A stretch of 64,000 bases of DNA from Ginglymostoma cirratum (taxonomy: Eukaryota), in NCBI GenBank assembly GCA_024137785.1, contig JAHRHZ010000270.1:4404168-4468167 (forward strand), written 5' to 3'. The position numbers and the translations under genes were made by a program. Positions within the stretch are counted from its first letter, which is position 1. Each line of letters begins with the position of its first letter. Shown in pieces: positions 734-34,678 of the stretch. The notes below the pieces were generated by a model, which was not told the origin of the DNA, did not search any database, and saw only the letters and a program-made list of their open reading frames with translations.

Positions 734-803
734 ATGATTCCTTTTCGGGTAGCCTCGTTGCTACTGCTGGTAGTATGTTTAAACCCGGCCAGGCTCGTAA
801 ATG
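734..803 (+). CDS. exon 1, signal peptide [23 protein letters not shown]
   Basis: ATG, hydrophobic core, donor G|gtgagt, phase 1. Confidence 0.85.
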
Positions 804-33000: not shown

Positions 33001-34678
33001 ATATAGTGGATCAATAGAGCAATGTTTTAGACAACCAGTTTGTTACAACAGGTTGTCAAATGAACAATGCCGTAGCTTAACTCCTGTCCAACAGCTTGTT
33101 TTGGTTCATAATAAAGTTAGATGATGGATGTTGTAGGAATTACTACAACCATGCACTATAAATATACTCTAAATGGGAGTACACAGTTAACTTGCAATTT
33201 TCTATTCCCAGGAAAGAACTGGTGTGACCAGAATGAAGTCTGTGAGTACATGTGTCTTCCTGCCCCTCAAATCAATAGCCAATCAGCCAAGTATACTTGT
33301 GTGTGCCCAACTGGAATGGAGTTGACCAAAGATGAACAACAGTGTCAACCAGGTATGTTCCTTTTTAACAAAACTGCAGCACCTGAGATGATCCCTTGTA
33401 GCAAACCCTTTTTGCCAGGGGTAACACTACCCTGGTTCCAGTCTGACTCCTACATGATGAAAGTAGGTAGAGATGGCAGAATGTGATTATACATGCCCCC
33501 ATCACACTGTAGTACATGAGGCACATCTCAAACTGTAACAATCTATTTTTAAATCAGCACCTTGCTATCAAAAGCAAACAATACTTTGTTTTTAGTTGAA
33601 GGACATTGCTTAACTATAACTCTTCTCCATCCTCCTGCCTAAAGGTGTAGTGACCCTTTAGTTGAGCTGGCACCTGTTGTTGTCTGAGGGGCCCAATGGT
33701 CTAGTAAGACTAACTGCCTATTGACCACCAGGGGTCAGTGGAAAATAGTTGGTGCTTACCTAACTTATAGCTGGCTGTCCATCTGACAGTTTCAACTCAA
33801 TTGTCTTAAATTTTACACTGAACATGCTGGTTTGTTTTACAGTAACTGCATTTACAACAGCAAATGTGTCTGCAATGGCTTCTAGTGTTGCCCCTGAAGA
33901 ATTTTCCTTTGGCCTATCTACTAAGCCACCAACCATCTTGGCTACATCTAAAGGTAATGGAATATTAACTAGCATGTCCAAGCCTCTTTAACTTTTGACA
34001 ACCAGCTATGCTACTTGCTCCACTATATTATGGTTTTCTGGAATAAAGCCAAAAATTGTTTCAAAGCAACTTTGAAAGGGGGAGAATTTCTTGGTTTCAT
34101 TCCTGCATCATGATTCAGTGCCTGGATAGGCATTAAGTTACAATCAAGTTGCTTCCAAAAACTAAGCCACAGCAAAAAAGATGAATTAGTGATGCTGACC
34201 TATTTGACAAAGGGCTCCCGCTGTGCATAGTTGACACTCTTTGGAAACTCTTGGTATGCTGAAATATTGGCCCCTTAAAGAAAAAAGACAAAGTAAAATC
34301 TCAACTTTGTCACCCAGGTGTCAAGTCACGTTCTTCCCTCGAAGAGAAGTCAAGAGGATCTACAGCTGTTTGGGTCATTTTTATTCTTGGTAAGAACACT
34401 TTTGTATAGTCAATTGGCTTGACCTTAGTATTCCAATTTTTTAAGTTTGAAACAGTTCATAGGACTTGGCTTGTAAATTGACTTTCCTAAATTAGTTAAC
34501 TACTTAAACAAAATTACAAGGTCTCTTTTGGCTTGTCTAATGCTTATTTTTTCCAATTGCAGCCCTTCTAATAATAACTGGCTTAGTTGGCTACTTTGGT
34601 TGGCAGTCCTGGCAAAAGAAAAATGTGCAGTACGTCAGCTTTGAGAATCCAGTGTTTCAGCATAAATCTGTTGACTGA
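734..34678 (+). CDS. VLDLR: VLDLR-like lipoprotein/vitellogenin receptor paralogue with triplicated ectodomain (43 exons, 2162 aa; 21 LA repeats, 9 EGF, 3 YWTD propellers, O-linked stalk, TM, short tail)
   Basis: Manual splicing at GT/GC-AG sites gives one open frame of 6489 nt. Exon order, phases and sizes (120,123,123,369,123,~120,120,126,172,~225,119,140,142) match the VLDLR pattern three times. Exact paralogue identity needs a phylogeny. Confidence 0.9.
1495..1810 (-). mobile_element. decayed HE1-like tRNA-derived SINE
   Basis: similar to 48110-48436 (catggctaac...tttggactgt). Confidence 0.65.
2655..2774 (+). CDS. exon 2, LA1 (module 1)
   Basis: [40 protein letters not shown]; aag|, |gtaagt. 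Confidence 0.92.
2838..3395 (-). mobile_element. decayed CR1/HER1-like LINE 3' fragment
   Basis: agaacatagaacagtacag tail; colinear with 18378-18870. Confidence 0.7.
5312..5434 (+). CDS. exon 3, LA2
   Basis: [44 protein letters not shown]. Confidence 0.93.
6066..6188 (+). CDS. exon 4, LA3
   Basis: [41 protein letters not shown]. Confidence 0.93.
7200..7568 (+). CDS. exon 5, LA4-LA6
   Basis: three 6-Cys SDE repeats in 369 nt; AG/GT. Confidence 0.94.
8593..8715 (+). CDS. exon 6, LA7
   Basis: [38 protein letters not shown]. Confidence 0.92.
8793..8906 (+). CDS. exon 7, LA8
   Basis: [37 protein letters not shown]; the AG ending at 8792 keeps frame, the one ending at 8778 does not. Confidence 0.9.
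9672..9791 (+). CDS. exon 8, EGF-A
   Basis: [37 protein letters not shown]. Confidence 0.93.
9862..9987 (+). CDS. exon 9, EGF-B (GC donor)
   Basis: [24 protein letters not shown]...CKAI; donor G|gcaagt. Confidence 0.88.
10281..10452 (+). CDS. exon 10, YWTD propeller 1
   Basis: [15 protein letters not shown]...[12 protein letters not shown]; 172 nt. Confidence 0.93.
10585..10845 (+). mobile_element. decayed HE1-like SINE
   Basis: tggctcagtgttagtactg head; agggattctatga tail. Confidence 0.6.
11064..11288 (+). CDS. exon 11, propeller 1
   Basis: [15 protein letters not shown]...EPASIAVDP. Confidence 0.93.
11793..11911 (+). CDS. exon 12, propeller 1
   Basis: [20 protein letters not shown]...PNGIAL. 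Confidence 0.93.
11990..12129 (+). CDS. exon 13, propeller 1
   Basis: [15 protein letters not shown]...AVFE. Confidence 0.93.
13086..13227 (+). CDS. exon 14, propeller 1
   Basis: [21 protein letters not shown]...VYHELLQLP. Confidence 0.93.
14214..14351 (+). CDS. exon 15, EGF-C (end of module 1)
   Basis: [19 protein letters not shown]...YTCVCPPG. Confidence 0.92.
14640..14762 (+). CDS. exon 16, LA3-type repeat (start of module 2)
   Basis: [38 protein letters not shown]. Confidence 0.92.
15270..15420. mobile_element. decayed inverted Penelope-terminal-type repeat
   Basis: ctggcagcatctg...gatgctgcca arms, like 55170-55345. Confidence 0.5.
15540..15908 (+). CDS. exon 17, three LA repeats
   Basis: 369 nt, paralogous to exon 5. 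Confidence 0.94.
16116..16235 (+). CDS. exon 18, LA7-type
   Basis: [38 protein letters not shown]. Confidence 0.92.
17105..17224 (+). CDS. exon 19, LA8-type
   Basis: [38 protein letters not shown]. Confidence 0.92.
17874..17993 (+). CDS. exon 20, EGF-A (module 2)
   Basis: [29 protein letters not shown]. Confidence 0.93.
18073..18198 (+). CDS. exon 21, EGF-B (module 2)
   Basis: [15 protein letters not shown]...CKAV; GT donor. Confidence 0.93.
18378..19236 (-). mobile_element. 5'-truncated, relatively young CR1-clade LINE in intron 21
   Basis: RT C-terminal peptides [49 protein letters not shown], with frameshifts; agaacatagaac tail. Confidence 0.9.
19618..19789 (+). CDS. exon 22, propeller 2
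   Basis: [15 protein letters not shown]...IFWADL; 172 nt. Confidence 0.93.
20680..20901 (+). CDS. exon 23, propeller 2
   Basis: [19 protein letters not shown]. Confidence 0.93.
21229..21347 (+). CDS. exon 24, propeller 2
   Basis: [20 protein letters not shown]. Confidence 0.93.
21423..21562 (+). CDS. exon 25, propeller 2
   Basis: [19 protein letters not shown]...[10 protein letters not shown]. Confidence 0.93.
22483..22624 (+). CDS. exon 26, propeller 2
   Basis: [21 protein letters not shown]. Confidence 0.93.
24176..24325 (+). CDS. exon 27, EGF-C (end of module 2)
   Basis: [22 protein letters not shown]...YTCVCPSG. Confidence 0.92.
24736..24855 (+). CDS. exon 28, LA2-type (start of module 3)
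   Basis: [38 protein letters not shown]. Confidence 0.92.
26104..26226 (+). CDS. exon 29, LA3-type
   Basis: [38 protein letters not shown]. Confidence 0.92.
27127..27501 (+). CDS. exon 30, three LA repeats
   Basis: 375 nt, paralogous to exons 5 and 17. Confidence 0.93.
29071..29193 (+). CDS. exon 31, LA7-type
   Basis: [36 protein letters not shown]. Confidence 0.92.
29274..29393 (+). CDS. exon 32, LA8-type
   Basis: [38 protein letters not shown]. Confidence 0.92.
29605..29910 (+). mobile_element. decayed HE1-like SINE
   Basis: gctcagtggttaatgctgttgcctca head; ggtggattgg..atgctaaattgcc core; agggattcta tail. Confidence 0.65.
30133..30252 (+). CDS. exon 33, EGF-A (module 3)
   Basis: [29 protein letters not shown]. 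Confidence 0.93.
30340..30465 (+). CDS. exon 34, EGF-B (GC donor)
   Basis: [15 protein letters not shown]...CKTV; donor G|gcaagt. Confidence 0.87.
30613..30787 (+). CDS. exon 35, propeller 3
   Basis: [15 protein letters not shown]...IFWADV; tandem TAGGAG acceptor. Confidence 0.9.
30897..31121 (+). CDS. exon 36, propeller 3
   Basis: [18 protein letters not shown]...EPASIAVDP. Confidence 0.93.
31711..31826 (+). CDS. exon 37, propeller 3
   Basis: [19 protein letters not shown]; one codon shorter than its paralogous exons. Confidence 0.92.
31903..32042 (+). CDS. exon 38, propeller 3
   Basis: [19 protein letters not shown]...[11 protein letters not shown]. Confidence 0.93.
32453..32591 (+). 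CDS. exon 39, propeller 3
   Basis: [21 protein letters not shown]...VYHELIQAP. Confidence 0.93.
33212..33352 (+). CDS. exon 40, EGF-C (end of module 3)
   Basis: [34 protein letters not shown]. Confidence 0.93.
33843..33953 (+). CDS. exon 41, Ser/Thr-rich O-linked stalk
   Basis: [36 protein letters not shown]; ttttacag| and G|gtaatg; 111 nt, phase 1-1. Confidence 0.75.
34318..34389 (+). CDS. exon 42, juxtamembrane and start of TM
   Basis: [23 protein letters not shown], resembling VLDLR GTSAAWAIL; AG/GT. Confidence 0.8.
34563..34678 (+). CDS. exon 43, TM end, cytoplasmic tail, stop
   Basis: [38 protein letters not shown]. Confidence 0.88.

Follow-up and report, generated by a model that had tools for sequence, protein, structure and literature searches.

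A three-module gene of Ginglymostoma cirratum identified as an orthologue of the chondrichthyan receptor VLDLRc2

The window analysed here is a stretch of 64,000 nt from Ginglymostoma cirratum (GenBank assembly GCA_024137785.1, contig JAHRHZ010000270.1, contig positions 4404168-4468167), which was examined together with 100 kb on either side. It contains a gene of the VLDLR (very low density lipoprotein receptor) type that is almost certainly an intact orthologue of chondrichthyan VLDLRc2. Taken together, the evidence is best explained by a VLDLRc2 orthologue with three ectodomain modules on one transmembrane (TM) anchor, quite likely acting as an ovary-specific endocytic receptor for vitellogenin (Vtg). 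The gene, the three-unit design and the hypothesis of multivalent vitellogenin binding are already published and are not new; the present analysis is an annotation-level confirmation of the published gene in another shark.

Gene model and internal duplication

Exons were first traced by a six-frame motif scan and self-BLAST of the window, in which the LA, EGF and YWTD exons form three interleaved series on the + strand; exon ends were then snapped to splice sites. The 43 exons join in frame to a coding sequence of 6486 nt, corresponding to 2161 amino acids (aa) plus a stop codon, with 0 internal stops (Table 1). All 42 acceptors are AG, and the donors comprise 40 GT and 2 GC. The predicted protein carries 21 LA repeats in 8+6+7 clusters, as had been proposed from a first reading of the DNA (the original prediction), and 15 YWTD-like motifs, 5 per propeller. 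The regular expression for LA repeats matched 21 times in the window, with 0 matches past 34679 and 0 in each of 20/20 shuffled controls. The N-terminus has a hydrophobic stretch (Kyte-Doolittle (KD) value of 1.84 over 19 residues), and one TM peak is found at approximately aa 2113-2137. The original prediction gave a protein of 2162 aa with one signal peptide and one TM; the in-frame joining and the single TM stand, but the length had included the stop codon. The endocytic core of the LDLR family is complete, comprising LA clusters, EGF/YWTD propeller, single TM and an FxNPx[Y/F] signal. The Ser/Thr-rich stalk would correspond to the O-linked sugar domain.

The three modules have exon sizes in register and are 63-66% identical among themselves (module 2 versus module 1, 66%); because identity is only this high and the introns are distinct, they are not haplotype duplicates. 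All three arose from chondrichthyan VLDLR as exon blocks with phase-1 borders (exons 4-15 and 3-15) were duplicated within the gene. The module boundaries are all in phase 1, thus block duplication would have preserved the reading frame. Three modules had been predicted as complete, and three are present, but LA1 occurs in module 1 only, and modules 2 and 3 copy partial exon blocks. Both junction introns run from phase 1 to phase 1; open stretches in them do not exceed 57 codons, and KD averaged over 19 residues does not rise above 1.36. Likewise, tblastn with the signal, stalk and TM/tail exons found no additional copy within the window. These scans agree with the predicted sizes of the junction introns and with their lack of a TM or signal exon. 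The idea that these introns are notably short does not hold, as the median intron of the gene is 611 nt and 8 of the 42 are under 100 nt.

Two small features of the model may be added. The GC donors are those of exons 9 and 34 (window 9988 and 30466), so that in modules 1 and 3 the intron following EGF-B is of the GC-AG type; the equivalent donor is GT in module 2, in the neighbouring VLDLRc1 gene and in two other neighbouring VLDLRc3 modules, and GC in one VLDLRc3 module. An AATAAA overlaps the stop codon at window 34676-34683, and the next AATAAA is at 37664.

Table 1. Coordinates of the VLDLRc2 gene and of genes in its neighbourhood (window positions unless stated otherwise)
Feature	Position	Strand	Remarks
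VLDLRc2 coding span	734..34678	+	Gene model; 2156 residues align with BDQ29912.1, 78.9% of them identical
Exon 1, predicted signal peptide	734..803	+	Hydrophobic N-terminus; aligns with catshark c2 N-terminus
Module 1 (exons 2-15)	2655..14351	+	LA1-LA8, EGF-A, EGF-B, YWTD propeller, EGF-C
Exons 2-8	2655-2774, 5312-5434, 6066-6188, 7200-7568, 8593-8715, 8793-8906, 9672-9791	+	
Exons 9-15	9862-9987, 10281-10452, 11064-11288, 11793-11911, 11990-12129, 13086-13227, 14214-14351	+	
Junction intron 15	14352..14639	+	288 nt, phase 1, no TM/signal exon
Module 2 (exons 16-27)	14640..24325	+	LA3-LA8, EGF-A/B, propeller, EGF-C; copy of exons 4-15
Exons 16-21	14640-14762, 15540-15908, 16116-16235, 17105-17224, 17874-17993, 18073-18198	+	
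Exons 22-27	19618-19789, 20680-20901, 21229-21347, 21423-21562, 22483-22624, 24176-24325	+	
Junction intron 27	24326..24735	+	410 nt, phase 1, no TM/signal exon
Module 3 (exons 28-40)	24736..33352	+	LA2-LA8, EGF-A/B, propeller, EGF-C; copy of exons 3-15
Exons 28-34	24736-24855, 26104-26226, 27127-27501, 29071-29193, 29274-29393, 30133-30252, 30340-30465	+	
Exons 35-40	30616-30787, 30897-31121, 31711-31826, 31903-32042, 32453-32591, 33212-33352	+	
Exons 41-42	33843-33953, 34318-34389	+	Ser/Thr-rich stalk (57 aa, 32% S+T) and start of TM
Exon 43	34563..34678	+	Remainder of TM and ~22-aa cytoplasmic tail, FENPVF + 6 residues
VLDLRc3 orthologue, upstream	contig 4330659-4382770 (L028-L033)		Best hits versus whale shark c3, 70-100% identity per hit
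Canonical VLDLRc1, downstream	contig 4510499-4522576 (L040-L041)		8 LA, one propeller, FDNPVY
Kv-channel exon after VLDLRc1	L043:7462-8802	+	447-codon frame; BTB_2 + Ion_trans; best PDB match Kv2.1

Identity of the gene and phylogeny of its modules

Ohishi et al. (2023; PMC10015161) named VLDLRc1, VLDLRc2 and VLDLRc3 (c1, c2 and c3 below), with three repeated ectodomain units in c2 and five in c3, and described the three genes in tandem on skate chromosome 3. Literature searches on VLDLR with chondrichthyan or shark and vitellogenin turned up this paper alone. The window protein aligns with catshark BDQ29912.1 ('very low density lipoprotein receptor c2') end to end, both junctions included, with 1701/2156 residues identical (78.9%). 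Identity is 96.2% to whale shark XP_048450552.1 (2076/2159) and falls to 86.6% for bamboo shark, 68-72% for rays and skates and 63.8% for C. milii; to three five-module c3 proteins it is 62.6-64.1%. By regular expression the 8+6+7 layout occurs in 14 of 16 c2-like models, from chimaera to rays, with 8+5+7 in the other 2. The c2 accessions of PMC10015161 (scyTo_0010396, XP_042202743.1 and XP_032874680.1) fell in the same cluster, all with 8+6+7. The window gene and chondrichthyan c2 are alike in their three units, LA layout, FENPVF motif, tandem cluster and module-wise orthology. They differ by species-level substitutions only, such as that of the LA3 central acid, which is present in module 1 of the window gene and of carpet sharks and lost in catsharks.

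For the phylogeny, modules from LA3 to EGF-C were cut from 40 proteins, giving 77 module sequences. The IQ-TREE analysis (LG+G4, 635 columns) used 48 of the 77 rows, the 29 omitted being mostly redundant or partial; an echinoderm receptor served as the root, and the rows included LRP8 and LDLR but no Lrp13, LRP1/2 or cyclostome sequences. Support was 99/98 for the VLDLR clade, 98/97 for chondrichthyan c1+c2+c3 and 100/99 for all c2/c3 modules together; one VLDLR daughter therefore gave all eight c2/c3 modules. Modules 1, 2 and 3 of the window gene each form a clade, supported at 100/100, with the c2 module of corresponding number from catshark, skate and sawfish. On this tree the shark and ray modules had already separated before the shark-ray split and have evolved independently since, and the 8+6+7 layout is found in chimaera as well. 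Backbone forks among the c2/c3 modules are weakly supported (open/unstarred), leaving the duplications unordered. The C. milii modules have poorly supported positions, modules 1 and 2 pairing at 89/44, possibly as a result of conversion or long branches.

A duplication predating the divergence of jawed vertebrates was suggested by a 68-module FastTree with an insect lipophorin receptor as its sole outgroup, in which the root fell inside c2, and c1 and bony VLDLR were nested among the c2/c3 modules. This arrangement vanished with the LRP8 and LDLR outgroups and was therefore rejected as likely long-branch attraction.

Identity over the full length, architecture, synteny and the phylogeny of each module all point to c2, to which the gene is assigned. 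The original prediction had guessed at a lineage-specific multivalent receptor, perhaps VLDLRc2 or VLDLRc3, and had called for a BLASTP-type comparison and a per-module phylogeny; these now settle on c2, inside chondrichthyan VLDLR. Any other identity, be it c3, an LRP1-, LRP2- or Lrp13-like receptor, an assembly artefact or pseudogene fragments, is extremely improbable, even though RefSeq names for the orthologues include 'LRP1-like', 'LRP2-like' and 'LRP4-like'. The modules nest within VLDLR, apart from LRP8 and LDLR, in a tree built without Lrp13, LRP1 and LRP2, and Lrp13 is set apart by description, with 7-13 N-terminal LA repeats and 1 C-terminal LA repeat in teleosts and a locus beside rchy1 (PMC9935665). 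VLDLRc3 and an assembly artefact are ruled out by the gene model, identity comparison and tree. An intact open reading frame encodes a protein that is 79% identical to c2 and 64% to c3 of the same catshark, and c3 is present upstream as a separate gene, the window gene having three units and not five.

The gene resembles c3 (BDQ29913.1) in tandem location, module clade, truncated FENPxF tail and loss of the LA5 acid, but c3 has five units, approximately 3420-3490 aa, 63-64% identity and a first module that begins at LA3. With VLDLR/Lr8 and c1 it shares exon structure, the LA-EGF-EGF-YWTD-EGF module, a Ser/Thr stalk and a TM, at ~69% identity to module 1. The latter receptors differ in having one canonical module of eight LA repeats, rather than 21 over three modules, and a tail of FDNPVY plus 35-36 residues (8/8 c1/bony tails), in place of FENPVF plus 6; c1 is also broadly expressed.

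Protein product, binding repeats and proposed cargo

The locus is predicted, with high confidence, to encode one three-module protein. Its splice sites are canonical and in phase, and 16/16 compared c2-like models run across both junctions. Split or alternative products, whether in place of the 2161-aa protein or alongside it, are improbable; an example would be a secreted form that has two modules and ends in intron 27, together with a receptor made from module 3 alone. Such products would fit the automated models that break at the module 2/3 junction (aa 1382) and end by running into the intron, namely those of basking shark (1366+806 aa), Rhinoraja (1394+805 aa) and C. milii (two isoforms, match ending at aa 1382). 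They would also fit read-through of intron 27, which meets a stop after 19 codons and has an AATAAA/ATTAAA hexamer at 24456. However, hexamers of this kind are at chance level (~0.5 expected per 410 nt), module 3 lacks its own signal exon, and junction 2/3 is crossed by a separate catshark model that begins at aa 1349. Besides the broken models, several aspects of the published material weigh against a single product. Neither published c2 primer pair crosses a module junction, the first pair lying inside module 1 and the forward primer of the second encoding a module-3 blade. BDQ29912.1 departs from the original catshark gene prediction at aa 271, 395-430 and 1308 only, and no junction-spanning c2 cDNA is shown in the available text of PMC10015161. 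Since the primer pairs cross no junction and BDQ29912.1 nearly equals the gene prediction, we infer the junction-spanning cDNA from conservation.

In 8/8 c1/bony VLDLRs, 5 of the 8 LA repeats (LA1, 2, 3, 5 and 6) have an aromatic residue together with D-x-[DE]-x-D. The window protein keeps this pattern in 7 of 21 repeats (LA3 and LA6 in every module, plus LA1 in module 1), and 12 c2 proteins keep it in 4-7 of 21. The central acid of DxDxD is lost from LA2 at 24/24 c2 positions and from LA5 at 36/36 c2 and 15/15 c3 positions; c1/bony VLDLRs keep both (8/8). The central Asp strengthens binding up to ~20-fold (PMC3304490), thus the losses would point to the avidity of many weaker sites, and binding is probably through avidity across clusters rather than through three full-strength VLDLRs, each a copy of the high-affinity site.

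The c2 tails have FENPxF with 3-9 residues to the end in 11/11 proteins with a tail found (none in the skate model), as do 7/7 c3-type tails. The FXNPXF of amnionless supports Dab2/ARH-dependent internalisation (PMC8199105, PMC8710305), and the motif is also found in tick VgRs (PMC6537121). Retention of internalisation after a Tyr-to-Phe change in the LDLR NPxY is not stated in the available text of PMC2133128 or PMC2288869, and was not used. Apart from the figures, the available text of PMC10015161 was not found to mention the truncated FxNPxF tail or the LA acid losses.

Propeller positions of LDLR were read in the 1N7D register via alignment columns, as a regular-expression count missed modules. 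The K560 and H562 equivalents are kept in 3/3 window propellers and the H586 equivalent in 2/3; in module 1 the H586 and W541-type positions are Arg. The K560/H562/H586-type positions presumably have a role in acid release; a literature search naming His562/His586 gave no paper.

Uptake of vitellogenin or yolk lipoprotein is the likely main role. Ca2+-loaded LA repeats would bind basic patches on vitellogenin or VLDL at the oocyte surface, several LA clusters at once, the FENPVF tail would recruit Dab2/ARH-type adaptors into clathrin pits, and each propeller may aid cargo release at endosomal pH, with the receptor then recycling. Simultaneous binding of several vitellogenins was already proposed in the Discussion of PMC10015161. 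All modules trace back to the lineage of VLDLR/Lr8, known as the Vtg receptor of vertebrates; binding of Vtg by Lr8 is described for frog, chicken and teleosts (PMC9935665). Catshark c2/c3 expression is confined to the ovary, not renal or broad, which tells against a megalin/LRP1-like follicle scavenger; canonical c1 is expressed broadly (PMC10015161). Such a scavenger, with VLDL/apoB lipoprotein or vitamin-binding proteins as main cargo instead of vitellogenin, is an unlikely alternative that would accord with the missing LA1 of modules 2 and 3 and the altered LA2 and LA5; chicken Lr8 binds Vtg and VLDL alike (PMC9935665), and the broad expression of c1 includes the ovary (PMC10015161). Vitellogenin and other cargo are not mutually exclusive. 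Three points tell against vitellogenin uptake: the LA2 and LA5 acid losses could signal a changed ligand rather than avidity, ligand binding is left to future work in PMC10015161, and c2 was not recovered there from two viviparous sharks, for whose transcriptomes ovary is not among the tissues listed.

A tentative scenario, somewhat less than an even prospect, is that after an early chondrichthyan VLDLR duplication the daughter gained the truncated FxNPxF tail and lost the LA5 acid before a burst of ectodomain duplication (3 modules in c2, 5 in c3). If this is true, c2 and c3 would be yolk pumps that work by avidity and serve endocytosis only, with the arthropod VgR/megalin design re-invented in a vertebrate lineage, and receptors with 1, 3 and 5 modules would form a natural series on multivalency and uptake in very large eggs. 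Arthropod VgR/yolkless proteins are likewise large multi-cluster oocyte receptors of the LDLR family, those of ticks sharing FXNPXF, but they have two LA clusters, 5+8 in insects and 4+8 in ticks (PMC6537121). As the shark modules nest inside vertebrate VLDLR, the likeness would be convergent. Teleost Lrp13, which differs in the layout and locus described above, is a second ovary-enriched, Vtg-binding receptor of the LDLR family besides Lr8 (PMC9935665). A tandem of Lrp13 and lr8, which might have made Lrp13 the c2/c3 orthologue, is not borne out by the eel synteny in the available text of that source. The FxNPxF tail that c2 and c3 share, together with the losses of LA acids, yields specific predictions for the tests of binding and uptake that PMC10015161 left open, and the gene bears on the yolk loading of very large shark and ray eggs.

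Neighbouring genes and database names

The gene lies within a tandem cluster in the order c3 (upstream), c2, c1 (downstream). In the upstream c3 gene the match passes from aa 1249 straight on to aa 2794 across a gap of 10 N in the assembly, close to contig position 4365550, with ~1545 aa (~2.4 modules) missing; as the gap hides these modules, the gene appears as a false three-module gene. The signal exon of c1 was not located in the downstream gene. Among the catshark primers, c1F matches the downstream gene at 20/20 positions and c3R the upstream gene at 19/20, and c1R has no match better than 15/20. In the window, c2F matches exon 7 at 18/20 and c2R exon 11 at 16/20, the latter tied with one other regional site.

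RefSeq models of c2 and c3 in many sharks and rays (P0044-P0050, P0160, P0177 and P0189 in our set) are named LRP1-, LRP1B-, LRP2- or LRP4-like, or are fragmented. The family is hidden from name searches because its models are misnamed or split.

The region between c2 and c1 within the window (34679-64000) looks repeat-rich and has 0 LA motifs. Its sole stop-free frame of at least 170 codons (43513-44094) resembles other interspersed-repeat copies in the window. Additionally, two related frames at 44170-44412 and 55569-55811 are 67% identical, the second abutting a 100-N gap (55813-55912). With no Pfam match at E 0.01, these frames resemble what we take to be the endonuclease end of Penelope-type retroelements.

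Beyond c1, the Kv-channel frame is probably exon 1 of KCNV2, a name given by synteny because kcnv2a follows lr8 in teleosts (PMC9935665).

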